DNA from: a virus
Length of the DNA: 64,000 bases
Direction: 5' to 3' (one strand)
Virus record (IMG/VR): IMGVR_UViG_3300042691_008527
Location: 1-64,000 of that record
Part shown: positions 1 to 57,683 of the stretch, one piece after another
How the letters are laid out: each line of letters opens with the position of its first letter
How positions within the stretch are numbered: the first letter of the stretch is position 1
The notes under the pieces: model-generated
What the model was told of the DNA's origin: nothing
Database searches by the model: none
The model's input: the letters and a program-made list of their open reading frames with translations, nothing else
Position numbers and translations under genes: made by a program

Positions 1-97
1 TACGGATAGGTGTGAAAGAGTTGATTCTTCCAGTTACTCCCACTTTGCTAGTAGTGAAGAGATCTCCTACTTGATAGGTATATCCTCCGAGAGTCAT
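1..97 (-). CDS. Small SH3/KOW-like early protein, runs off window edge
   Basis: ATG at 97 after GAAAGGA RBS; MTLGGYTYQVGDLFTTSKVGVTGRI resembles 698..862. Confidence 0.65.
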   Translation of the reverse strand, partial: MTLGGYTYQVGDLFTTSKVGVTGRINSFTPIR

Positions 98-125
98 TTG
101 CTTTTCCTTTCTGTTAGTGTTTGGT

Positions 126-157
126 GGGCAGTTTTACCTTAGGTGATGCCCAGCACC
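126..157 (-). ncRNA. Candidate H-type pseudoknot, copy A
   Basis: GGTG-CTGGGCAT-CACC-TAAGGTAAAAC-TGCCC; covaries with copy B. Confidence 0.55.
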
Positions 158-166
158 AAGTCTCAT

Positions 167-589
167 TTAGAGATAACGAGCAACTGCCTGATATGTAGAT
201 GTGGAGACTACTTCCTCATCGGTCATCTTGAGAATACGAATCGCATTAGAGATTTCCTCTTTTTGCTGGTCATATTCATAGCGACCAAGAGTTACGAAGT
301 CACGCTTTGGCTCATCAGGAATAGTGATAGTTCCTGCTGGTAGGTTGAAATCAACATTTATTGTGCCGTTCCAACGAGTATTGGCAGACAACTCTGTTGC
401 CTTTGCGATATGTGCTAGAGCCAACTTAGCAACTTCCTTGTTGTGCTTCTCTTGTGCCTTCTTGAACTTTGCCTCATTAGCCTCTTGAGTAGAGTAATCC
501 TTCTCAAGTTTTGCGAGGGCAGATTCAAGTGCCTTGATTACCTTAGTTGTTGCTATCTTTACTGAGATAGCCTTACCTCTGCTTGCCAT
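167..589 (-). CDS. Hypothetical early protein (coiled coil)
   Basis: ORF track 167..619; start moved to ATG 589 because of RBS GAAAGGG and the promoter at 618-646. Confidence 0.75.
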   Translation of the reverse strand: MASRGKAISVKIATTKVIKALESALAKLEKDYSTQEANEAKFKKAQEKHNKEVAKLALAHIAKATELSANTRWNGTINVDFNLPAGTITIPDEPKRDFVTLGRYEYDQQKEEISNAIRILKMTDEEVVSTSTYQAVARYL

Positions 590-617
590 TTGTTTCCCTT
601 TCTGTTTGGTGGTTTCC

Positions 618-646
618 ATCTTAGCATTTTGCTAAGTGAATATCAA
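618..646 (-). promoter_or_regulatory. SigA-type promoter
   Basis: TTGATA-17-TAAGAT with TG extension. Confidence 0.7.
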
Positions 647-649
647 GTT

Positions 650-679
650 GAGCAGTTTATCCTCCACTTGCTCAGGTGG
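650..679 (-). ncRNA. Candidate H-type pseudoknot, copy B
   Basis: CCAC-CTGAGCAA-GTGG-AGGATAAAC-TGCTC. Confidence 0.55.
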
Positions 680-697
680 CGTTAGCGTTTGCTAAAC

Positions 698-862
698 CTA
701 CTTTTGCTTCCAAGTAGTCCAACGAGTCTTACCCTCAACATCAAGACGAACACGAACTGTGCCGTTTGCCTGTGGGTTGATTTCCTTGATGACTCCTGTG
801 ACCTTGCTCTTTTGCGAGGTGTAGGTATCGCCTACCTTGTATAGTGCTGTGGCTACTGCCAT
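698..862 (-). CDS. Small SH3/KOW-like early protein (54 aa)
   Basis: Hand-translated MAVATALYKVGDTYTSQKSKVTGVIKEINPQANGTVRVRLDVEGKTRWTTWKQK; AAGGAG RBS. Confidence 0.75.
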   Translation of the reverse strand: MAVATALYKVGDTYTSQKSKVTGVIKEINPQANGTVRVRLDVEGKTRWTTWKQK

Positions 863-959
863 TTTCTTTCTCCTTTGTTTGTTTGTTGCTTACTGTATTA
901 TTATCGCATTATTTACTTGTGTCCGTCAAGTTATTTCTGATATTTCTCATATTTTGAGA

Positions 960-1028
960 TTATTTATCCCATAGACCTGCTAGCGTTAGGATTAGCAGAA
1001 CAAGGAATAAGATTATTATTATGCTCAC
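960..1028 (-). CDS. Putative 22-aa membrane peptide
   Basis: GTG start; MSIIILFLVLLILTLAGLWDK. Confidence 0.4.
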   Translation of the reverse strand: MSIIIILFLVLLILTLAGLWDK

Positions 1029-1037
1029 CCATGCCCC

Positions 1038-1760
1038 CTACTTTTTCTTAGCAGAGAACACTATATCAGATTTTTGGTATACGCACAAGCCACAAGAGAC
1101 ACAAGCAGATCCCTTCTCAGATATTAGCGGGATAGCCTTTTTATTCTCAGGACACTTTGCCCCTACCCTGCCAATCATGGCTTTCATGTCTGCCTGCCCA
1201 ATAGCGAATGTATCAGCAAGATAAGCTAATCTTACTTCTTTACTAGCTAGGGTAACGGCAATATCTTTATTATCTTGATCTGTTGAGAAATAGAGAGATA
1301 GGTTATCAATACCCTTGAGGATATTAGTTGCGGAGGGTACACGAGTATAAACCCAGAATCTAATATCAGGATTATCTAGAATCGTGTTCCTCCATGCCCA
1401 TGTATATGAATCATTGAAGAAGTCCCCGTCCCAGTGAATACGGAAGAGTTTTTCAGCATTGCGCTTATCACAATCTTTGCGGAAGTCTTCAATCATTTCT
1501 GACAATAGATCTTCCATAGTATCTTGATCTGCGTCTTTCAATAGATCCCAGTTATGGATTAGAACATTTCTAACACCCTTATAGATCTTTTCTAACTTAC
1601 CCGCATAGCAGACTTTGGCGCATGTAGGTGTTTGACCAGGGCATGAATATTCTTTCCCTGCGGGTAGTCCGAATGTATTAGCAATAGTAGGTGTCTTGCC
1701 ATTAGGTGAAACGGCATTAGTAACTTTTCTGTCCTTAGATCTAATAAGCATAATAGTCAT
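1038..1760 (-). CDS. GP88-like protein (radical-SAM-like Cys motif)
   Basis: FGLPAG..SCPG.T..C..VCYA, FRIHWDGDF, FWVYTR, C-terminal CVSCGLC. Confidence 0.8.
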   Translation of the reverse strand: MTIMLIRSKDRKVTNAVSPNGKTPTIANTFGLPAGKEYSCPGQTPTCAKVCYAGKLEKIYKGVRNVLIHNWDLLKDADQDTMEDLLSEMIEDFRKDCDKRNAEKLFRIHWDGDFFNDSYTWAWRNTILDNPDIRFWVYTRVPSATNILKGIDNLSLYFSTDQDNKDIAVTLASKEVRLAYLADTFAIGQADMKAMIGRVGAKCPENKKAIPLISEKGSACVSCGLCVYQKSDIVFSAKKK

Positions 1761-1872
1761 TCTCCATTTCTAGCCATACTGTTTCCTTGATTGATTGATC
1801 AGATCCGTATAGAGATCCATTACAATCATTCATTTCATGACCGCAACATGGAAAGTCTTCACAAGTATTCAT
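1741..1872 (-). CDS. Small Cys-motif protein (43 aa)
   Basis: MNTCEDFPCCGHEMNDC...; GAAAGGG RBS; promoter TTGATA-17-TAGACT at 1897-1925. Confidence 0.65.
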   Translation of the reverse strand: MNTCEDFPCCGHEMNDCNGSLYGSDQSIKETVWLEMENDYYAY

Positions 1873-1993
1873 TTTATTCCCTTTCTGAATAATCCAAGTC
1901 TAGCATTTCAGGGAAAAAATATCAACTTAGCGTAATAGGGTGTTTCTACGTAAATAGGGCAAAACGGACAGCGGCCGGGCCCCTTTCGGAGCT

Positions 1994-2221
1994 TTACTCT
2001 ACATAGACATAGAGTTCAATTTTTTCATCATCAAAGAAGAATGTATCAATAACTTCTTCATATTCATCAATAATGGCAACATTACATCCTTCTTCGCCTT
2101 CATTGATATTTTTGATAGTGAAGAACTCTCCATCAACTTTTATTAGATCGCCTTCCATAAGTTGATTTGGATAGAGTAAGTCAGCAAAGCGTATTTCCAT
2201 ATCCATCATTGTAGCAGTCAT
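1994..2221 (-). CDS. Hypothetical acidic SH3-like protein
   Basis: ORF track; LMEGDLIKVDGEFFTI. Confidence 0.7.
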   Translation of the reverse strand: MTATMMDMEIRFADLLYPNQLMEGDLIKVDGEFFTIKNINEGEEGCNVAIIDEYEEVIDTFFFDDEKIELYVYVE

Positions 2222-2427
2222 TTTATTACTACCTCGCCATTCGCATAGAAAGTTTTTGTGAACATTTTACCTGTTGGGTCAGTTAGATTATATCTAGCAT
2301 AGACCTTAGCATTTCCATAGTCCTTACACTTAGCCCAAGCGTCATGAGCCTCCATGAAGTCATGAAGTCGCAAGGTAGAAACGAGTTCATCGTCATACCA
2401 AGTTGTTAGTGCGTATGCGTATTCCAT
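2218..2427 (-). CDS. Hypothetical early protein
   Basis: ORF track 2218..2448; likely start MEYAY at 2427 after GAGAGG. Confidence 0.7.
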   Translation of the reverse strand: MEYAYALTTWYDDELVSTLRLHDFMEAHDAWAKCKDYGNAKVYARYNLTDPTGKMFTKTFYANGEVVIK

Positions 2428-2428
2428 T

Positions 2429-2728
2429 TTAGTATTCCTCTCTCTCAATAATCCAAGCGTCTAGGTGGTGTGCCTCAATAATAGCATGGGCAGGTGCCAT
2501 GTCCTCACCACGCCACGAAACACCCTCTGGTAACTTGATAGGCAAATCCCAAAGTCCTAAGTCATTTACTGCGTCAATAGCCTGAATACATGGCTGAATC
2601 ATAGTGCTAGGAACGGGAGGGTAGTGATTAGATGAGAGATGAATCCCTATCTGTTGCTCAATGCTTAGCATGATACCCATATCTTCTAAGACTCCGCTTG
2701 CCATTTCATTTGCCATATTGCTTCCCAT
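2429..2728 (-). CDS. Conserved phage hypothetical protein
   Basis: HLSSNHYPPVP...HHLDAW; AAGGGG RBS. Confidence 0.75.
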   Translation of the reverse strand: MGSNMANEMASGVLEDMGIMLSIEQQIGIHLSSNHYPPVPSTMIQPCIQAIDAVNDLGLWDLPIKLPEGVSWRGEDMAPAHAIIEAHHLDAWIIEREEY

Positions 2729-2739
2729 TTTATTTCCCC

Positions 2740-2904
2740 TTATCGTGCTTCTGGTGTAGTGAATAGTTCGCCTACTAAGTATAGGCTATGTTGGTTATAC
2801 TTCTCAAGTCCTGCCTCACAATGGCAATACTCAAAGTCAAACTCCTCGCCAAGGGCAAAGTATATCTCTCCGCTATCATAGCAAAGAAAGCAGTTAGTTT
2901 TCAT
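2740..2904 (-). CDS. Small Zn-finger-like protein
   Basis: MKTNCFLCYDSG...YCHC; GAAAGGA RBS. Confidence 0.7.
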   Translation of the reverse strand: MKTNCFLCYDSGEIYFALGEEFDFEYCHCEAGLEKYNQHSLYLVGELFTTPEAR

Positions 2905-2930
2905 TTCATTTCCTTTCTTCCAATACGATA

Positions 2931-2953
2931 AACTTATCACAACCCTCCGACAA
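2931..2953 (-). promoter_or_regulatory. PafBC/RecA-NDp-type promoter 1
   Basis: TTGTCGG-AGGGTTGTGA-TAAGTT. Confidence 0.75.
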
Positions 2954-3021
2954 CCTCAAACCGACACGCCGAGTTCTGCAAAAAATTTCTGGGTCGCCGT
3001 AAAGTGTAACGTAAATCATAT

Positions 3022-3041
3022 TGTGGATAACCTGTGGAAAA
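3022..3041. promoter_or_regulatory. Tandem DnaA boxes
   Basis: TGTGGATAA (perfect, reverse complement TTATCCACA) and TGTGGAAAA. Confidence 0.55.
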
Positions 3042-3066
3042 CGCCCCGGCGCCCTCGGGCGTGTTG

Positions 3067-3174
3067 CTATTTCTTTTTTATTTCTCTTTCTGCGATTGAG
3101 ATCTCTAGCAAAGTTACCAAACTATAAGCAAGAATAAAAATCGTTGCCAAAGTTGCGAAGTCACTTATTCCCAT
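3067..3174 (-). CDS. Small membrane protein (35 aa)
   Basis: MGISDFATLATIFILAYSLVTLLEISIAEREIKKK; TAATG coupling to upstream gene. Confidence 0.6.
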   Translation of the reverse strand: MGISDFATLATIFILAYSLVTLLEISIAEREIKKK

Positions 3175-3362
3175 TATGCTAAAACCTTTCCTAGTTCATC
3201 AACACCGCAGGCTTTTTCAAACCTTGCTTTATCAAAGTTTTCATTATCACTCTGAAACCAATCAGCAAATAAATCTACCATATCCTCAAACACTCTCGCA
3301 GGAATTTCATCAGCGAAAGAGTTGAGAATGTTGGCGGTCTTTATGTAGTCCTTGCGAGTCAT
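3174..3362 (-). CDS. Conserved phage hypothetical protein
   Basis: MTRKDY...DNENFDKARFEKACG motif. Confidence 0.75.
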   Translation of the reverse strand: MTRKDYIKTANILNSFADEIPARVFEDMVDLFADWFQSDNENFDKARFEKACGVDELGKVLA

Positions 3363-3613
3363 TAGTTATTTTCTCCTAAGTCTATGAATGCTTCACTACC
3401 ATTTTCATTGATACGCTCTAACTCTGAGATAAGTTGCTCACGAGTTAGTTTTGAAACATTTCCTAGAATACTTCTAAGGCATTCCTTATTCATAGCGATA
3501 AACATTTCCTGAGGAATGCTAGAGATTTGAATTCCCATCGGTGAATCTGGGTTATAGCGTGAGACGAAGTTGATACCATCAACCTCAAACGGAACAGTTA
3601 CGAAGTTAGACAT
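3362..3613 (-). CDS. Hypothetical early protein
   Basis: ORF track; GAAAGGA RBS; coupled stop/start. Confidence 0.7.
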   Translation of the reverse strand: MSNFVTVPFEVDGINFVSRYNPDSPMGIQISSIPQEMFIAMNKECLRSILGNVSKLTREQLISELERINENGSEAFIDLGENN

Positions 3614-3726
3614 TAGTTTTCCTTTCTTGTTGTATTATTCATTGTAGCGGTTAGCACCGACAAGGCTTGCGCTTGGCTTTCCTTGCGTTGCTGGATTACA
3701 TGCTGGCGGAATTCTTCTAGATTCAT
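3613..3726 (-). CDS. Small hypothetical protein (37 aa) with an internal promoter
   Basis: MNLEEFRQHVIQQRKESQAQALSVLTATMNNTTRKEN; GGAGGA RBS. Confidence 0.55.
   Translation of the reverse strand: MNLEEFRQHVIQQRKESQAQALSVLTATMNNTTRKEN
3641..3663 (-). promoter_or_regulatory. PafBC/RecA-NDp-type promoter 2
   Basis: TTGTCGG-TGCTAACCGC-TACAAT. Confidence 0.75.
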
Positions 3727-3728
3727 TT

Positions 3729-3893
3729 CTAGTCCTCCTCTATTTCTGTAACTTTGATTAGGTGAATGCCAAAGGCAGGATTACTTAGCGCATCAAGACG
3801 CCTTAGCATATTCTCGTAGTTTTCTTCATAGGATAGAAACTCGTCAAAGTCTCCTTCGATATGAAACTCAGCGGTTAGTGTATAAGTAGGCAT
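3729..3893 (-). CDS. Small acidic hypothetical protein (54 aa)
   Basis: MPTYTLTAEFHIEGDFDEF...; GAAAGGGG RBS; promoter TTGCTA-17-TAAGAT upstream. Confidence 0.65.
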   Translation of the reverse strand: MPTYTLTAEFHIEGDFDEFLSYEENYENMLRRLDALSNPAFGIHLIKVTEIEED

Positions 3894-3951
3894 TTTTGCC
3901 CCTTTCTTTTTGTTGAGATAATCTTATCGTATTCAGTTATTTATAGCAAGC

Positions 3952-4110
3952 CTAAGCGTTGTGAGGTTGGTCACATGGACACTTAGGATTAGTCTTAGCA
4001 AAGTAGCGAATCAACATCATTCGCTCATTAGTAGTTAGTCCAAATACTGAGCGGATACCGCCGTCATTGTATTCATGGATTAGCTTTATTACTTTTTCAT
4101 CAGTGAGCAT
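3952..4110 (-). CDS. Small hypothetical protein (52 aa)
   Basis: MLTDEKVIKLIHEYNDGG...KCPC; GAAAGGGG RBS. Confidence 0.65.
   Translation of the reverse strand: MLTDEKVIKLIHEYNDGGIRSVFGLTTNERMMLIRYFAKTNPKCPCDQPHNA
3960..3975. promoter_or_regulatory. CRP-family box
   Basis: TGTGA-GGTTGG-TCACA. Confidence 0.65.
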
Positions 4111-4141
4111 TTTTGCCCCTTTCTTATTTTCTTACTCTGTA

Positions 4142-4170
4142 AGTTTATCACTTTGGTCTGACAATATCAA
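4142..4170 (-). promoter_or_regulatory. PafBC/RecA-NDp-type promoter 3, with an additional -35
   Basis: TTGATA-TTGTCAG-ACCAAAGTGA-TAAACT. Confidence 0.75.
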
Positions 4171-4211
4171 CTTAGAAATGCGGATAAATCGGACAATCTG
4201 CAAAATATTTT

Positions 4212-4227
4212 TGTGAGTCGTATCACA
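4212..4227. promoter_or_regulatory. CRP-family box
   Basis: TGTGA-GTCGTA-TCACA. Confidence 0.7.
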
Positions 4228-4313
4228 TCGTACGTAAATGGTACAAAACGGACATAGGGCCCGGCATTTTTCGGCGCATTGTCAAATCAACACGCCGATT
4301 TTTTATTTATTTT

Positions 4314-4502
4314 TTATGGATATTTCTTTTCATCTTCATCAACTAGAAACGAGATGTATTCAGAGAATCCAATATCATACGCAATCGGATCAACTGCTTT
4401 CAGAACATCAGACGGGGAATAAAGAAGATTCCCAATCACTATCTGCTCATTCGTTTCATCTAACATCTGGTCATACAGCGGAAGAAGTAAATCTTCATTC
4501 AT
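4314..4502 (-). CDS. Conserved phage hypothetical protein
   Basis: YDQMLDE...YSPSDVLKAVDPIAY. Confidence 0.75.
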   Translation of the reverse strand: MNEDLLLPLYDQMLDETNEQIVIGNLLYSPSDVLKAVDPIAYDIGFSEYISFLVDEDEKKYP

Positions 4503-4651
4503 CGCTTTACCTCCATTACTGAATAACTAGCCTTAGGGTCTAGTTGCTTTACAATATCCATGAACTCATTTAGTTCTTTTACACTTGCGAATGTCTCCTT
4601 AGCAATAGCCTTAGAGATAAGTCCGTCAAATACGATGACCTTGATTTCCAT
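4499..4651 (-). CDS. Small hypothetical protein (50 aa)
   Basis: MEIKVIVFDGLISKAIAKETF...; GAAAGGA RBS; ATGA overlap with next gene. Confidence 0.65.
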   Translation of the reverse strand: MEIKVIVFDGLISKAIAKETFASVKELNEFMDIVKQLDPKASYSVMEVKR

Positions 4652-4745
4652 TTCAGTTTTCCTTTCTTAGTTGAGAGTTATTACTTAGGACATTAGGCGA
4701 GAACACTCTCAAACTGCCTCTGTTTCCTTATTTAGTTATGAGATA

Positions 4746-4774
4746 AGCCTAGCACTACCCACCGACAATATCAA
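4746..4774 (-). promoter_or_regulatory. PafBC/RecA-NDp-type promoter 4, with an additional -35
   Basis: TTGATA-TTGTCGG-TGGGTAGTGC-TAGGCT. Confidence 0.75.
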
Positions 4775-5007
4775 GCGGTAGGGATGTGATTTCTATCACG
4801 ATAGATTTCATAGTCATTAGGACTCCACCTAGTGATATGAAACACACCGCCATTTGATGTCTTGATGGTCTTGGCGTATTGATTCACGCCCTTGATTTCG
4901 GTGATGATTCCACCCTTGATTAGTGATGAAGATTTGGTCATTGCGATTCTATCGCCAACTCTCATCATGTTGTATTTACTTAGGGTTACAGTTGCCATGT
5001 TTGGCAC
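4771..5007 (-). CDS. Hypothetical SH3-like early protein
   Basis: ORF track; GAAAGGAA RBS. Confidence 0.7.
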   Translation of the reverse strand: MPNMATVTLSKYNMMRVGDRIAMTKSSSLIKGGIITEIKGVNQYAKTIKTSNGGVFHITRWSPNDYEIYRDRNHIPTA

Positions 5008-5032
5008 TTCCTTTCTTTCTGCTTACTCCGTA

Positions 5033-5054
5033 AGTCTAACACACACCTCCGACA
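5033..5054 (-). promoter_or_regulatory. PafBC/RecA-NDp-type promoter 5
   Basis: TGTCGG-AGGTGTGTGT-TAGACT. Confidence 0.75.
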
Positions 5055-5103
5055 TTACCTAATCAGAAATGCATACAAAATGGACATTTTGCAAACTATT
5101 TTT

Positions 5104-5119
5104 TGTGAGTATAATCACA
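5104..5119. promoter_or_regulatory. CRP-family box
   Basis: TGTGA-GTATAA-TCACA. Confidence 0.7.
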
Positions 5120-5183
5120 TCATACATAAACGGACAAATCGGACATCGGCCCGGCGCCTATGGACAAATCGGACATTTCGGAC

Positions 5184-5199
5184 TGTGGCAAAGATCACA
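5184..5199. promoter_or_regulatory. CRP-family box (1 mismatch)
   Basis: TGTGG-CAAAGA-TCACA; upstream of + strand promoter TTGCTT-17-GATACT at 5221-5249. Confidence 0.55.
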
Positions 5200-5286
5200 T
5201 GCGACACGCCGTGTTTGAGTTTGCTTTTTTTCTGAGGGTGTGGGATACTTGCTGCCATGAACGGACAACAGGAAGGTAGTAGTTAC

Positions 5287-5344
5287 GGTGTGAGGCATAT
5301 CACACCACGATAACTTGACCAGCAAAAAGAGGGTGTGCTAAGAT
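5287..5344 (+). promoter_or_regulatory. CRP box plus SigA-type promoter
   Basis: GGTGTGA-GGCATA-TCACACC (5287-5306), then TTGACC-18-TAAGAT. Confidence 0.7.
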
Positions 5345-5372
5345 TCACCCATTGAAAGAAAGGAGTCATCAA

Positions 5373-5600
5373 ATGTATGACTACGCAGAAGAAATCAGAA
5401 GCGATGTTCGCTATTATCATGGTGAGCGATTCGCACCAAAGAATCCACCTAAGGATTACAAGAAAGAAATCGCAGAGGCTATCGCAGTAACAGATGCGAT
5501 GACGCAAGATGAGAGAAATGCGATTCGCTATCTCTCAGAGAATAACAGAGAAGAGTTACACGCTCTCTATGTGCGAGTGAAAGAAAGGGCAGGTCTATAA
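5373..5600 (+). CDS. Hypothetical early protein
   Basis: ORF track 5352..5600; ATG 5373 after GAAAGGAG. Confidence 0.7.
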   Translation: MYDYAEEIRSDVRYYHGERFAPKNPPKDYKKEIAEAIAVTDAMTQDERNAIRYLSENNREELHALYVRVKERAGL

Positions 5601-5601
5601 C

Positions 5602-5709
5602 ATGGCTAAGTGCTCAATGTGTGGGGGTAGTGGTAGAATCTATTACTACCTAGCAGGAGAACATGAAGTCACACCTTGTGACCATGTAGCAGAAAGGAAA
5701 ACAAAGTGA
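5602..5709 (+). CDS. Small Zn-finger-like peptide (35 aa)
   Basis: MAKCSMCGGSGRIYYYLAGEHEVTPCDH; resembles 2740..2904. Confidence 0.55.
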   Translation: MAKCSMCGGSGRIYYYLAGEHEVTPCDHVAERKTK

Positions 5710-5888
5710 GACTACGGATTACTAACATGGCAGGCGATACGCACGACATGGAAATGAAATCAAAAGAAGAGGTTAGTTATTTTATTGAGATGTATCGCAA
5801 GAACCTGCGAAGAAATCAAAGAGTAAAAGTTACTTGCGATATTCTAGGTATTGACGGATACTTACAAGGAACGCTAACTAATCGCTAG
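5706..5888 (+). CDS. Hypothetical protein
   Basis: GTG start after GAAAGGA; ORF track. Confidence 0.7.
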   Translation: MRLRITNMAGDTHDMEMKSKEEVSYFIEMYRKNLRRNQRVKVTCDILGIDGYLQGTLTNR

Positions 5889-5896
5889 ATAAATAA

Positions 5897-5935
5897 AGTG
5901 AGCACATCTCAGACAGTGTGCTCACTATTTTTTTT
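5897..5935 (+). terminator. Intrinsic terminator ending the early region
   Basis: AGTGAGCACA/TGTGCTCACT stem followed by a T-run. Confidence 0.85.
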
Positions 5936-6025
5936 ATTTTATTTTTTTCAAAACATGCATCATACATCTTAGAAAAATATTCAGATTTTGGTAAAACCAA
6001 AAAATAAAAATTTTTTCAGATTTCA

Positions 6026-6412
6026 CTAAAGTGGAAGATGTCCGCTTTGCTCAAGGACAAACCCATTAGCCCTATCGAACAGCTCATAATCAAGCTCTAC
6101 AATATTAAAAGCCTTTGCGAACTCTTCAAAAACAATCGGTACATCTAAAGCACCACATGTATAAAGATCGAACTGAACTAACGAAGGATCTCCCTCATCC
6201 CAAATATGAAATGCAATGTGGCTAGTCTCAATCATGACAATAGCCGTAAGACCACGATTTCCTTCTTTGTCGACATAGCTAGCAAATGGACCCTTAATAA
6301 TCTTCATATCAATTTTCTCAACTAGGCGGGTAAGGAAATCAATAGCCTCTTCCTCTGATCGCATAGGATTATGCACCTTAGCATTAACAAGCAGGTGTTT
6401 GTGAAATAACAT
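6026..6412 (-). CDS. speD: Pyruvoyl-dependent S-adenosylmethionine decarboxylase family (class 1b)
   Basis: HKHLLV, GLTAIVMIETSHIAFHIW, FDLYTCG. Confidence 0.85.
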   Translation of the reverse strand: MLFHKHLLVNAKVHNPMRSEEEAIDFLTRLVEKIDMKIIKGPFASYVDKEGNRGLTAIVMIETSHIAFHIWDEGDPSLVQFDLYTCGALDVPIVFEEFAKAFNIVELDYELFDRANGFVLEQSGHLPL

Positions 6413-6466
6413 ATCTCTCCTCTGTTTGACGAATTACCATTATAGCGTATATGATAGAATAAAACA

Positions 6467-7111
6467 ATGTTTGTCCATGCAGAGTTTGCTAATAAATATT
6501 ATAAAATTTTAAATAGAATAAAGCCAGACGTTGCTATTGAAATTGGAGCATATGATGGAGAATTTTCTCAATATATGGCAACCGTTATTGATCCTAAAAA
6601 TGTTTGGGCATTTGAAGCAAATCCAGATACTTACAACAAATACAAAGATTCTTTATATCATATAAATTATATAAATATAGCTATATCTGACAAACAAGAA
6701 GAAACTGCTTTATATATAGTAGATACTGAAGAAATATGGGCTCCTGGAGCGGTAAGTATTAAAAATAGAAATGATGGACAACAAGAAAAAATAATATCTT
6801 TAATACAAACAAACACATTGGATAGTTTTGTAAAAGAAAATAATATCTCAGGAAATATATCATTATGGGTAGATGTCGAAGGTGCAAATAAAGAAGTTTT
6901 ATTAGGATCTATTGAAACACTAAAAAATGTAACATCAATATATATCGAAGTAGAAACATATGAATTTTGGAAGAACATATGGTTTAAAGATGATGTTTTA
7001 AACTTTTTGCAAGGATATAATTTTACTGCAATAGATCAGTCTACTGACTGGAAGCAGCATGATGTAATTTTTATTAGAAATGACTATTTAGAAATGGCAG
7101 GGTATAAATGA
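6467..7111 (+). CDS. FkbM family methyltransferase
   Basis: IEIGAYDG, AFEANP, LWVDVEGA..EVLLG, IYIEV. Confidence 0.85.
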   Translation: MFVHAEFANKYYKILNRIKPDVAIEIGAYDGEFSQYMATVIDPKNVWAFEANPDTYNKYKDSLYHINYINIAISDKQEETALYIVDTEEIWAPGAVSIKNRNDGQQEKIISLIQTNTLDSFVKENNISGNISLWVDVEGANKEVLLGSIETLKNVTSIYIEVETYEFWKNIWFKDDVLNFLQGYNFTAIDQSTDWKQHDVIFIRNDYLEMAGYK

Positions 7112-7839
7112 TCTCAAAGTTAGAGGGCATGCCAAAAATAGTTTACATAAACATATATTCACAATATAAAAGACGTGAACATATGGAGTCTATGTTTGCA
7201 AAGTATCAGATAGATGACTATCAACACTTTAATGCTATAACTCCATCAAAATCTCATCATCAATATTTAAACAAGGGGGAGTTTGGATGCATGCTTTCCC
7301 ACTTGATGATCATATCTGACTTTTATAAAAATAGCCCAGATGATATGTTGATCGTAATGGAAGATGATGTTGATATTTCTAGCATAGATAATTGGGATTT
7401 TTCTTGGCGGGAATTCATAGAGGCAATGCCTAACTTTGAAATATTACAACTTATTAGAAACCAAGAACACCAACAATACGCCAAACTCAAACAATGGCAT
7501 TGGAGAGATAAATCAACAGCTGGATATCTAATCACAAAAGACTATGCTAAAAAAATATATGATATGTACATGTATTCTCAAAAAAATTTGTCGGGGTTTC
7601 CAAATCTCCATGACGATCCTGAATTTCCATGGACACACAAAGTAGGCCCAGTAGCCGATTATGCTCTATATAAAAACTTTAACTCTTGGTCAATAGGTAT
7701 TTTTACTTACCTATTAAATACTGAAATAGGCTGGAGTTCTACATCTCCTGATAAAGAACCACCCAATTGGCTTGTCAAATATAACACTGAAATAAACGAA
7801 TATTGGTCAAAGCCACATAGCCTCAAAGATATTTTATAA
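7108..7839 (+). CDS. Glycosyltransferase family 25
   Basis: YINI...RRE, GEFGCMLSH, VMEDDV, STAGYLIT. Confidence 0.8.
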   Translation: MISKLEGMPKIVYINIYSQYKRREHMESMFAKYQIDDYQHFNAITPSKSHHQYLNKGEFGCMLSHLMIISDFYKNSPDDMLIVMEDDVDISSIDNWDFSWREFIEAMPNFEILQLIRNQEHQQYAKLKQWHWRDKSTAGYLITKDYAKKIYDMYMYSQKNLSGFPNLHDDPEFPWTHKVGPVADYALYKNFNSWSIGIFTYLLNTEIGWSSTSPDKEPPNWLVKYNTEINEYWSKPHSLKDIL

Positions 7840-8001
7840 TTACCATTTCCCAATAGGACAATGAGAGTTTTCTAGACGTGTTTTGATTTTCATAAAGCAC
7901 CCGCACTTTTTACAGACTTCTTTGCGTTTATTAAAAAATGGGCATTCACGACATATTTGCATACGCCTATCAAATTCTTCTTCAGATATTTCTTTGCCCA
8001 T
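7840..8001 (-). CDS. Small Cys-rich protein (DUF6171-like)
   Basis: RMQICRECP...CKKCGCFM..K.....HCPIGKW; leaderless ATG at 8001 below TATAAT at 8009-8014. Confidence 0.75.
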   Translation of the reverse strand: MGKEISEEEFDRRMQICRECPFFNKRKEVCKKCGCFMKIKTRLENSHCPIGKW

Positions 8002-8149
8002 ATGTTTAATTATAGCGGATACTGAGAATACTAACAAATACTAGACCATGTTTGTATGTTTCATACATGTATTGGTCTATGGGGTGTTTGGTGTTCTATT
8101 TAGCGCTTCGCTTTAAATTCCCGCATAAAAAAATGCTATAATATTGCTT

Positions 8150-8446
8150 ATGTCCGTCAACGAATGGCTAGGCGTAATCATAAGTGTGATGTCAATCATA
8201 GGATCCTTTGTATTGGCCATACGTTGGCTTGTAAAGCACTATTTCGAGGAGATGCGGGCGGAACTTAAACCCAACTCGGGAAAGAGCCTTAAAGACCAAG
8301 TAAGCCGTTTAGAAGAACGTGTCAATGAAGCTGAATATCTTCGCCGAGACATGAATGAAAAAATTGACAAAATGTATTTGATTTTGATTGACTATATCGC
8401 TGGACAAAATTCTAAGAAACGATCTAAATCTAAATCTGAATTCTAG
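8150..8446 (+). CDS. Membrane-anchored coiled-coil protein (lysis-cassette or holin-associated type)
   Basis: N-terminal transmembrane helix, LKPNSGKSLKDQVSRLE motif; leaderless ATG 8150. Confidence 0.65.
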   Translation: MSVNEWLGVIISVMSIIGSFVLAIRWLVKHYFEEMRAELKPNSGKSLKDQVSRLEERVNEAEYLRRDMNEKIDKMYLILIDYIAGQNSKKRSKSKSEF

Positions 8447-8520
8447 TATATACTATATATAAGATATATAGATATTATATATATTAGATATATCTTTTAT
8501 CTTTATATATTTAAATTATA
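8443..8520. repeat. AT-rich low-complexity block with ATATATA/GATAT repeats
   Basis: Almost all A/T, alternating AT. Confidence 0.8.
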
Positions 8521-8543
8521 CACATTGATTTGATAGTTGTCAA
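8515..8543 (-). promoter_or_regulatory. Perfect consensus SigA promoter with no downstream gene
   Basis: TTGACA-17-TATAAT. Confidence 0.75.
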
Positions 8544-8625
8544 GTTTTAATACCTTTTGAACTATAACGATTTGATAAACTTTTATATACTTGTACCTTT
8601 TGTCCTATTATGATATAATTTCTTA

Positions 8626-8677
8626 GTTGGCCCCTGAGTCTCTACCCCACCCCTCTGCAGCTCAGGGGCTGACCTTT
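8626..8677 (+). ncRNA. Candidate small hairpin RNA with C-rich loop
   Basis: TGATATAAT at 8611-8619; 14-bp stem 8626-8639/8660-8673; loop contains CCCCACCCC. Confidence 0.55.
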
Positions 8678-8699
8678 ATTATGGTATAATTTTCACATA

Positions 8700-9116
8700 A
8701 TGTCATGTGCAACATGCCCCCCAGATATTGAAAAAATTGGTGCTAATCCATCAAATATTCAGTGGTGCGTAGTTCGTGGCGATACCGCAACTTTAAGAAT
8801 TGACTTTGTTGAAGATGATGAGGTTACTTATTTAGATACTTCGACTTGGTCCTATGATGCTACAGCATATGATCCATCTACAGATATTTCTTTTACTTTG
8901 ACTACAGAAGATGAACCAGGATATGTTTTAATTACCGCTCCAGCTAGTATGACTGAAGACTGGGGAAATATATATTCTTCAGTTGTAGCAGAACTTATTT
9001 TTGATTTACAGGTAACAATACCATCTGACCTTATTGGAGGTCTAGATACAATTTGGACCCCAGTTATTGGTACAATATCAGTACTAGGTGATGTTACTCT
9101 AGGAGGAAGTTTATGA
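8700..9116 (+). CDS. Virion protein, BppU N-terminal-like adaptor
   Basis: VVRGDTATL...FDLQVT...GTISV; paralog of 12659..13003. Confidence 0.6.
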   Translation: MSCATCPPDIEKIGANPSNIQWCVVRGDTATLRIDFVEDDEVTYLDTSTWSYDATAYDPSTDISFTLTTEDEPGYVLITAPASMTEDWGNIYSSVVAELIFDLQVTIPSDLIGGLDTIWTPVIGTISVLGDVTLGGSL

Positions 9117-13551: not shown

Positions 13552-14886
13552 ATGTCAGAGTCAGTAGGTACGCTTTATCCAACACAGATACCATCGCTTT
13601 CTGATGCTGCTGATATTCAAGAAGCTCTTAGGCTTTATCATTATGGCGCATATCCAGGCACAGATCCTGGAGAATATAATCCTACAAACTCAAACCCAGC
13701 AAGCCTTGTATCAAGCTCAATAGCTGGAACATTTAATAGCTTACAAGGTCAAATTACAACTCTTTCTGGCAGCTTAGGTATTCAGCCTAGTACCCTAACC
13801 ACTAAGGGAGATATTCTTGCTGCAACTGCTGCATCTACTGTAACACGTTTTGGTGTGGGAGCAAATGGAACGGTACTAACTGCAAATAGTGCAACTGCTA
13901 CTGGTTTAGAATGGGCTACCCCAGTTGTAACAAACTCAAGCACCAACACGTTTACTAATAAAACAATGAATAATTTTTCTGTTACAGCAGGATCAAGCAT
14001 TCTTGATACCAACACAAATGAGCTTTTGACTTTCCCATCTTTAGTGGCATCAGCAGTTAATAATATACAAATAAATAATTCTGCTACTGGCGTAGCCCCA
14101 AGCCTTCAATCAATTGGAAATGATACAAATGTTGGCTTTAATATTATAACTAAGGGTACTGGATTAGCTCAAGTAAACGGTGTTCCAATTGCAACAACTA
14201 CAGACTCTCAAACTTTAACAAACAAAACTTTAACATCACCTTTGATAACTCTTAGTACAACATCTTCTACAACTGATGCTAGAATTTCTTGGGACACTAC
14301 AAATAAAAAGATTCAAGTTGGTGATGGAACATCTGCAACAGATTTTGCGTCATCGACATTGAGAACAAATGCTGCAACGCTTTCATCTAATAACTATACT
14401 ATAGTTCTTGCTGATAAAGATAAAATGGTTGAAATAGATAATGGTGCCACTGCATCTACTGTTACCATTCCAGCAAATGCAACAACTGCATTTTTACCAG
14501 GAACTCAAATTAATATTATTCAAACTGGAACTGCACAAGTAACTATATTGCCAGCATCTATAACAACTGCAACATTTTCTTCTGGAGGAGCTGCAGCAGC
14601 TACTACTTTTGTTATATCTACGCCAAATGCTAGCATTGCAGTTGGTCAAAAAGTTACGGGTACTGGTTTTGCAGATAATACATATGTTACAAATGTTGCT
14701 GGAACGACAATAACAGTAAGCCCAGCAATATCTTCACAGGTATCTGGAACAGTTACATTTAGTGTTGGAGTTATGGGAACTCCTGGACTTAAACTTAGAT
14801 CACGATGGTCTTCTGCAACTCTTATTAAGCGACCAACAGCAGCTGGTGTAGATGCATGGGTAGCAATTGGAGACCTTAGTGCATGA
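13552..14886 (+). CDS. Tail fibre stalk protein
   Basis: TTKGDIL, QTLTNKTLTSP, C-terminal WSSATLIK...WVAIGDL. Confidence 0.8.
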   Translation: MSESVGTLYPTQIPSLSDAADIQEALRLYHYGAYPGTDPGEYNPTNSNPASLVSSSIAGTFNSLQGQITTLSGSLGIQPSTLTTKGDILAATAASTVTRFGVGANGTVLTANSATATGLEWATPVVTNSSTNTFTNKTMNNFSVTAGSSILDTNTNELLTFPSLVASAVNNIQINNSATGVAPSLQSIGNDTNVGFNIITKGTGLAQVNGVPIATTTDSQTLTNKTLTSPLITLSTTSSTTDARISWDTTNKKIQVGDGTSATDFASSTLRTNAATLSSNNYTIVLADKDKMVEIDNGATASTVTIPANATTAFLPGTQINIIQTGTAQVTILPASITTATFSSGGAAAATTFVISTPNASIAVGQKVTGTGFADNTYVTNVAGTTITVSPAISSQVSGTVTFSVGVMGTPGLKLRSRWSSATLIKRPTAAGVDAWVAIGDLSA

Positions 14887-57003: not shown

Positions 57004-57195
57004 TTGATTACTTGTAATAAATGCAAAAAACGCATGTTTGTTGATAGGCAGTATAGTTCTATTCAGCACCTTGAAATTTTTTGCATTTGCTGCGGATCTC
57101 GTAGATTTTTTCATCCACCAGAGAGCTCAATGGAGGGGCTATGGCTACTTCAAAAAGAAAAGACTTTAGCGAAGAATATAATAGTGAGCCTATAG
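57004..57195 (+). CDS. Zn-ribbon protein
   Basis: CNKC...FCICCG; AGGAG RBS, TTG start. Confidence 0.7.
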   Translation: MITCNKCKKRMFVDRQYSSIQHLEIFCICCGSRRFFHPPESSMEGLWLLQKEKTLAKNIIVSL

Positions 57196-57683
57196 TAAAA
57201 GGAAACAAAAAAGTTTGGTTCCTTAATGGTGATTTGGTAAGACCACATCATCATAGTAGGTCTACTGGCATGGTTACATTCTATAATATAACACAGGATA
57301 GAATGGAAACCTGTTTTATATCTGACTTTAAAAGAAATAGAGAAAAAGCATATACTGTTGGAGAAACGGCTGAACTAGTTCATAGACATAAAAAATATAT
57401 GCCAAGATTAATAAAAAGAGGGGTTATCCCACCACCAACTGGATCTCAAAAGGGTGGCAAGACTGGATGGCAAGTAAGATCATATTATTCTGAATCGCAG
57501 GTAAAAGAGATACGTGATATACTGGCTAGTCTACATATTGGTAGACCACGCAAGGACGGCCTGTTGACAAATAATATGACTCCTAATAAACAAGAGTTGA
57601 CACGTAGAATGGGCGATGGTATACTTACATATACAAAGACTGAGGATGGTAGATTTATCCCAGTTTGGAATGAAAGCATTTAA
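57141..57683 (+). CDS. MerR-like HTH DNA-binding protein
   Basis: YTVGETAELV.RH....RL...G.IPPP...YYSE. Confidence 0.65.
   Translation: MATSKRKDFSEEYNSEPIVKGNKKVWFLNGDLVRPHHHSRSTGMVTFYNITQDRMETCFISDFKRNREKAYTVGETAELVHRHKKYMPRLIKRGVIPPPTGSQKGGKTGWQVRSYYSESQVKEIRDILASLHIGRPRKDGLLTNNMTPNKQELTRRMGDGILTYTKTEDGRFIPVWNESI

Follow-up and report, generated by a model that had tools for sequence, protein, structure and literature searches.

Elements with the geometry of PafBC promoters head small genes in a freshwater phage genome and are probably boosted or enabled by a host activator

The PafBC promoters of Mycobacterium and other Actinobacteria (RecA-NDp, recA P1-type) follow the in vivo consensus tGTCgg(N10)tA(N3)T, with its 5' part at -23 to -28 and no -35 element; the invariant GTC is read by residues R46 and R50 of PafB, and RNA polymerase (RNAP) with SigA alone does not recognize promoters carrying the PafBC box (PMC8635444). 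PafBC is activated by single-stranded DNA (ssDNA) binding to its WYL domains (PMC11804915). We analyzed the first 64 kb (64,000 nucleotides, hereafter the window; approximately 38% GC) of the 73.9-kb IMG/VR virus record IMGVR_UViG_3300042691_008527, which is classed as linear and estimated by CheckV to be 68% complete, and identified 5 elements of the pattern TGTCRG-N10-TANNNT, named P1 to P5, in a leftward arm of small genes. At a probability of roughly 60%, we read these elements from their sequence as PafBC-type hybrid promoters that would be boosted or enabled by the PafBC of the host. To our knowledge, PafBC "sigma adaptation" has been described for no genes other than chromosomal DNA-damage genes in cultured actinobacteria, and the titles and abstract openings of the best-ranked papers on PafBC and phage, and of those on RecA-NDp, contained no report of phage promoters of this type.

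T4 middle promoters join a MotA box at -30 to a sigma-70 -10 element and are served by sigma appropriation through MotA/AsiA. They resemble the elements described here in having an element between -35 and -10 that replaces the -35 while the housekeeping sigma reads the -10; in contrast, T4 encodes its factors and remodels sigma domain 4, whereas here no such factor was found in the profile search given below, and the box corresponds to the site of a host activator. LexA/RecA-controlled prophage promoters likewise tie phage genes to the DNA-damage signal of the host, but in the present case the link would be the activator PafBC together with ssDNA and not the cleavage of LexA or a repressor.

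Six exact matches to the pattern were present in the window against 0.9 expected (mean of 100 shuffles), and no shuffle reached 6, the maximum being 4. Five of the 6 matches lie on the minus strand inside 2.1 kb (Table 1), and all 5 of the elements listed by an earlier annotation made from the letters alone (the sequence-only reading) proved to be exact. One-mismatch variants were no more frequent than chance predicts (25 vs 29.5 expected), and the motif is thus sharply defined. The sixth match (13553-13574, plus strand) overlaps the ATG of the ORF at 13552-14886 and is probably a chance occurrence, and the remainder of the record beyond the window had no additional match. The upstream element with its invariant GTC (TGTCGG or TGTCAG) and the 10-nt gap to a SigA-type tA(N3)T -10 were found at 5 of 5 window sites, and the geometry, which the sequence-only reading had equated with the PafBC consensus, agrees with the published one in hexamer and in 10-nt spacing (PMC8635444). 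Four elements are followed by GAAAGG and then by a start codon 26-34 nt past the -10, and in P2 the GAAAGG and an ATG at 4651 lie approximately 95 nt downstream; the pairing of each element with a GAAAGG ribosome-binding site (RBS) and a small ORF, as seen in the sequence-only reading, is confirmed, with a more distant start for P2. P4 is the weakest of the 5 cases, and the window as a whole is a modest instance, with 5 sites that are mostly of the rarer TGTCGG form.

A GP88 protein search of IMG/VR retrieved at least 595 related contigs, of which 80 loci (1.3 Mb) were kept and scanned with the reversed sequence as control. The gene strand had 469 copies of the pattern and the opposite strand 85, against 5 and 12 in the control, giving 554 vs 17 in total at a spacing of 10; every other spacing from 4 to 21 gave at most 110, and enrichment far above control was seen only at 10. 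The box was TGTCAG in 484 and TGTCGG in 70 cases, other single substitutions numbered at most 56 each, and all 6 box positions are constrained across the family, the logo of which reads ttgAAAW-TGTCAG-T-S-S-N4-TGn-TAgAAT followed by an A/G-rich leader. A Shine-Dalgarno (SD) sequence and a start codon were located no more than 60 nt away at 89% of the sites (median 31 nt), a TGn extended -10 and consensus-like -10 hexamers were present at about 70%, and the hexamer was most often followed by TGG (102 of 439 sites), although the DNA has only approximately 38% GC. In complete relatives the sites are grouped on a single strand inside about 10 kb, with one relative having 15 sites in 9 kb. Because of the family enrichment, the single spacing, and the nearby SD and start codon, the family elements form a defined class of promoters or promoter-linked elements, and the recurrence of the motif upstream of genes in related phages agrees with the sequence-only reading. 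The shuffles and the reversed-sequence controls led us to reject chance or composition as the origin of the motif; the match at 13553 on a start codon is the kind of hit that such an origin would yield, but with 0 of 100 shuffles reaching the observed count and the family excess at one spacing only, its likelihood is negligible.

The choice between TGTCAG and TGTCGG varies by sub-lineage (loci L061, L062, L064, L068, L069, L071, and L082 compared with the rest), with most phages using TGTCAG near-exclusively and a few using both, and the sub-lineage of the window itself using mostly TGTCGG.

The -35 position was analyzed for its relation to the box. P1 and P4 lack a usable -35, and TTGATA at 17 bp from the -10 was confirmed at the 4142 and 4746 elements (P3 and P2), as the sequence-only reading had noted. 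The family shows a weak TTGAAA-like consensus at this position, with 52% of the sites matching TTGACA at 2/6 or less. Within the same loci, the -35 match was 3.39/6 for box promoters and 4.10/6 for box-less promoters (p=3e-8; random 2.56), and this weaker -35 where the box is present is in keeping with a box that stands in for the -35. The same trade-off between box and -35 is repeated at P3 and P5 when the window is compared with its relative L009 (Table 1).

These data bear on 2 other explanations of the box. It could be an operator in the promoter spacer, where a phage or host repressor would shut the genes off, and not the site of an activator. Its placement between the -35 and -10 positions, the -35-like hexamer at many sites, and the swap or loss of the box at P3 and P5 between close relatives that retained the promoter would suit an operator; however, about half of the family sites are without a usable -35, the -35 of box promoters is significantly weaker, nearly all of the excess TGTCAG lies at a single exact offset from the -10, and the logo is without a palindromic or repeated partner half-site, and we consider an operator improbable. 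Alternatively, the box could be read as a spacer element by the host RNAP holoenzyme itself or by some host factor besides PafBC, which would make the sites strong, constitutive early promoters. With a TGn extended -10 and a consensus-like -10 at about 70% of the sites, many could work with little upstream help, but we know of no comparable spacer element for actinobacterial SigA. Direct recognition is further opposed by the failure of RNAP-SigA alone to recognize box promoters (PMC8635444), and we think there is little prospect of it being the explanation.

In addition to TGTCRG, the 10-nt gap, and the TAnnnT -10 (PMC8635444; PMC11804915), the phage sites share with PafBC promoters a frequent TGG after the hexamer, seen in both phage and chromosomal boxes, and, at about half of the phage family sites, a weak or missing -35. 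They differ from PafBC promoters in heading small-gene arrays that lack recognizable function instead of repair genes, in the -35-like hexamer and TGn extended -10 added by many copies, and in the helically phased CRP-type palindromes that precede many of them.

We searched for the host lineage using the proteins of the record and its relatives. A true WhiB is encoded in 5 of 5 complete or nearly complete relatives, and the portal is 46% identical to portals of Streptomyces phages (Stanwilliamsviridae). GP88 homologues, which include those of cluster A mycobacteriophages such as D29 gp88, matched 389 records, comprising 283 Mycobacterium phages, 99 Streptomyces phages, 4 Fromanvirus (the genus of D29), and 3 Synechococcus phages, the one of these 3 among the matches listed being a weak partial match. 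On the strength of WhiB, the GP88 homologues, and the portal, the phage lineage is actinobacterial. The best true cellular homologue of its ribonucleotide reductase (RNR) is actinobacterial as well (Terracoccus, 59%). RNR matches at 81-87% in genome contigs were rejected as a host pointer, being phage contigs binned into metagenome-assembled genomes (MAGs) of many phyla. The contigs with the phage RNR (L088-L099) had been binned as Chitinophagaceae, Flavobacterium, Luteolibacter, Gammaproteobacteria, Bifidobacterium, Paceibacteria, and others, and they are probably phage contigs mis-binned by composition. The WhiB of a relative, compared with 201 actinobacterial genomes, gave 25-49% identity everywhere and hence no host resolution, and no tRNAs were found that could give a host clue.

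As candidate hosts, we analyzed 30 small genomes (1.0-1.5 Mb) of the class Actinomycetes, a size as expected for streamlined lake actinobacteria, and we infer a link of these genomes to acI/Nanopelagicales. Two adjacent WYL genes were identified in all 22 single-contig genomes and in 3 draft ones. In the one genome in which the pair was examined, it encodes HTH_PafC+WYL and WYL+WCX proteins beside trmI, and the PafB-like protein could be aligned from end to end with chain 7p5x_AY (E=3e-41), its RMFERDK motif (R46, R50) being conserved. The box was present at 23 of 27 recA loci, mostly as TGTCAGTGG-type / TGTCAGTGGCGCCTGCTACCTT, at 175-250 nt upstream of the start codon, and both marks of a host named by the sequence-only reading, pafB/pafC and the motif upstream of recA, are thus found in this set. 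Across 22 of the small genomes, TGTCRGTGG-N7-TANNNT occurred 68 times vs 5 in the control. A class-wide pattern scan of 401 genomes identified the box as enriched in most large genomes; in genomes of 1.2-1.5 Mb the loose pattern was at control level, and their small regulon was visible only with the stricter TGTCRGTGG form. Genomes flagged as unpublished (G266, G376, G010, G039, G033, G046, G035, G027, G018, and G307) enter this 401-genome count alone and carry none of the claims made here.

Between the PafBC-type box and the recA start (L111-L132), there is a long, highly conserved leader with a second CGTCGG...TACCTT-like element, which may be a structured 5' UTR (untranslated region) or a second promoter.

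From the similarity of its promoters to those of the candidate hosts, the phage probably borrows the PafBC switch of its host. The elements would be sigma-A-type promoters of the leftward small-gene arm with the PafBC box at -28 to -23. Host PafBC would become active when its WYL domains bind ssDNA, which could come from infection, replication, or DNA damage; the helix-turn-helix (HTH) of PafB would then bind the TGTCRG box, PafBC would bridge to domain 4 of the housekeeping sigma, and RNAP would initiate at a promoter with a weak or absent -35. The box would boost or replace the -35 in the phage, with P1 and P4 depending on the factor, and basal factor-independent transcription would be possible at P2, P3, and P5. 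The sequence-only reading, which is supported in part when taken as a whole, had also labeled the genes as early and as host-takeover genes, and these labels found no support, as 10 small proteins searched against Pfam and PHROG were assigned no function. By analogy, the leftward small genes are possibly early, because GP88 sits in what we take to be the early-lytic right arm of L5/D29-type phages.

Several observations weigh against PafBC as the activator. The box-less canonical promoters at 1897-1925 and 618-646 sit in the same leftward arm, P2, P3, and P5 carry a -35 match of 4-5/6 and could fire without an activator, and across the family the match to TTGACA is at least 4/6 at 29% of the sites vs 4.7% of random hexamers. 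The 89%-identical relative L009 keeps only 2 of the 5 boxes. A lytic phage using a damage-activated factor for early genes would need an activating signal at infection, and such a signal is presumed here. Further, only one broad clade of freshwater phages, with portals 50-100% identical, uses the box. We tested 10 multi-box contigs from an IMG/VR pattern scan by tblastn and portal search; all 5 that had a detectable portal fell into this clade, at 50-71% portal identity, the remaining 5 (24-75% complete) had no portal match, and convergence on the box in an unrelated phage lineage is not shown by this set. No box enrichment was found in the cultured relatives (Stanwilliamsviridae and cluster A mycobacteriophages), as covered by 6 cultured actinophages of PafBC-bearing hosts, Phredrick, Coruscant, BoomerJR, Daubenski, D29, and Vanisoa. 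Because usage is restricted to one clade, a clade-specific phage factor would explain it too.

Such a factor would be a phage-encoded, non-WYL DNA-binding protein with the TGTCRG box as its site, recruiting or remodeling host RNAP in the manner of a MotA/AsiA-like "middle" class, the identity with the PafBC box being due to convergence or mimicry. In addition to the distribution of the box, the box-less canonical promoters could express such a protein first, small HTH-like ORFs exist (a 56-aa ORF at approximately 68.3-68.5 kb and an HTH_17 match at 57141-57683, both weak), and WhiB, a binder of sigma domain 4, is encoded by all relatives. However, a profile search with WYL, HTH_PafC, PafB-like, and sigma region 2, the MotA and AsiA families not being among the queries, gave no match in the record or in 4 relatives (95-100% complete). 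The absence of a WYL protein noted for the window by the sequence-only reading therefore extends to the whole record, and the candidates for a phage activator elsewhere in the genome are the weak HTH matches and WhiB. The hexamer, the spacing, and the TGG preference all equal those of the host PafBC box, for which chance is an unlikely cause, and the box is unchanged across phages with only 50% portal identity, whereas the sites of phage-specific factors usually drift with the factor. We regard a phage-encoded reader of the box as rather unlikely.

The 56-aa ORF (record 68342-68512, plus strand; L155:1453-1623) is located beyond the window after a 191-aa ORF; it has a weak, sub-threshold sigma-70 region-4-like HTH, which was seen in 2 relatives too, and is a candidate small DNA-binding protein.

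If host PafBC does act on these promoters, this would be the first virus using the PafBC activator, and phages of the most abundant lake actinobacteria would build whole gene arrays on this promoter type. The box would then offer a sequence-based host clue for uncultured actinophages, and the family would provide dozens of natural promoter variants (with or without -35, with or without box) for studying sigma adaptation. A wider picture is conceivable, which we offer tentatively and with the odds somewhat against it: an abundant, cosmopolitan clade of freshwater actinophages might time a possibly early small-gene block by the ssDNA alarm of host PafBC together with CRP-type input, and phage genes and possible host defense genes might share the signal in an arms race over a shared sensor. 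In small actinobacterial genomes, the alarm box also heads a trypsin-like peptidase and a TPR protein with a subtilase.

The leftward genes of the record run from approximately 5054 to the left end and comprise small ORFs and a GP88-family gene, and the rightward genes from approximately 5315 encode tail-fibre-like proteins, RNR, portal, protease, tail genes, DnaB, and primase. A tyrosine integrase had no match in the record or in 4 relatives, serine integrases not having been searched, and the phage is therefore probably virulent; it is probably a freshwater actinophage, and near-identical DNA is present in freshwater and aquatic metagenomes from more than 10 studies. Megablast of 2500-7500 against cultured phages gave no match. 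RNA-library contigs from 3 studies cover parts of 1-5100 and hardly any of 5100-9000, and, being weak evidence at best for constitutive early transcription, they were not used as expression evidence, since contigs reveal neither start sites nor the level of expression and could stem from carried-over DNA.

Table 1. Coordinates of the promoter elements, neighboring genes, and repeated sites in the window, with the state of P1 to P5 in the relative L009 (the last row gives positions within the locus L157 of a small actinobacterial genome).
Feature	Position	Strand	Description	State in L009
Element P1	5033..5054	-	First promoter of the leftward arm; TGTCGG box, N10, TAGACT -10; TAGGTA (3/6) at the -35 position	Sequence identical
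Element P2	4746..4767	-	TGTCGG-TGG box, TGc extended -10, TAGGCT -10; TTGATA (5/6) at 4769-4774	Box and -10 retained, spacer altered
Element P3	4142..4163	-	TGTCAG box, TGa extended -10, TAAACT -10; TTGATA (5/6) at 4165-4170	TTTTCT in place of box; TTGATA retained
Element P4	3641..3662	-	Promoter-like; TGTCGG-TGC box, TACAAT -10; no -35 (CAAGCC, 1/6), no TGn	Box lost (TGACAG)
Element P5	2931..2952	-	TGTCGG box, TGa extended -10, TAAGTT -10; TTGAGG (4/6) at 2954-2959	TGTCGT at box; -35 improved to TTGATA
Box-less canonical promoter	1897..1925	-	TTGATA-N17-TGc-TAGACT; module homologous to P3, TTTTCC at box position	
Box-less canonical promoter	618..646	-	TTGATA-N17-TGc-TAAGAT	
Divergent canonical promoter	5315..5344	+	TTGACC-N18-TGc-TAAGAT; precedes ORF 5373-5600 (+)	
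75-aa ORF	4771..4998	-	3' of P1; GAAAGG at ~5015	
50-aa ORF	4499..4651	-	3' of P2	
62-aa ORF	4314-4502	-	After the 50-aa ORF; matches phrog_9294 (no function assigned)	
52-aa ORF	3952..4110	-	3' of P3	
Possible 37-codon ORF	3612-3725	-	GGAGGA RBS; stop overlaps ATG of next gene (TAATG); encloses P4	
83-aa ORF	3362..3613	-	3' of P4	
Terminator-like GC-rich hairpin and T run	3036..3066	-	Ends the cassette upstream of P5	
54-aa Cys-rich ORF	2740..2904	-	3' of P5	
GP88-family gene (PF17338)	1038..1760	-	In the leftward arm beside small ORFs; marker used to gather relatives	
CRP/GlxR-type palindrome	5104..5119	.	Begins 65 nt upstream of P1 box start	
CRP/GlxR-type palindrome	4212..4227	.	Begins 64 nt upstream of P3 box start	
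Further exact CRP/GlxR-type palindromes	3960-3975, 5289-5304		Four exact copies in the window altogether	
One-mismatch CRP/GlxR-type palindromes	4785-4800, 5184-5199			
15-nt repeat box	5132-5146, 5162-5176, 4241-4255, 4182-4196, 1957-1971			
Boxes in L157	2842-2863, 4044-4065, 9316-9337	-	Locus positions	

The palindrome TGTGA-N6-TCACA was identified 338 times in the 80 loci vs 5 in the control, and no gap other than N6 was enriched. Measured start to start, its distance to the box is most often 44, 54, or 65 nt, so the palindromes upstream of the box are on one helix face; by its spacing, this is the predicted class I layout of CRP/GlxR-type sites, upstream of the core promoter. A T7-promoter-like string near 4215 was discarded, being in fact half of a CRP-type palindrome. 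A group of phages with a GC of approximately 0.41 (e.g., L163-L165, L218, L227, and L229) has many boxes and no CRP-type palindromes.

Intergenic modules upstream of promoters also carry a repeated 15-nt box, ATGTCCGATTTGTCC, and its variants, with TGTCC direct repeats approximately 10 nt apart, which may be the site of another regulator, e.g., DnaA-box-like TTGTCC. A perfect TTATCCACA is located near 3022-3030 on the minus strand. With its CRP-type palindromes, TGTCC boxes, and TTATCCACA, the region looks like an array of host-type regulator sites.

In one 1.4-Mb actinobacterial genome, the locus L157 (G143:C1:440500-451000) has 3 TGTCAGTGG-type boxes within 6.5 kb. None of the genes behind them is a repair gene: one is a 161-aa gene without known function, another encodes a trypsin-like peptidase, and the third a TPR protein, after which come a subtilase and a dual-specificity phosphatase. 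The locus may be a PafBC-controlled stress or defense island. At 2 of the boxes the ORF starts only 6-7 nt away, pointing to leaderless transcripts.

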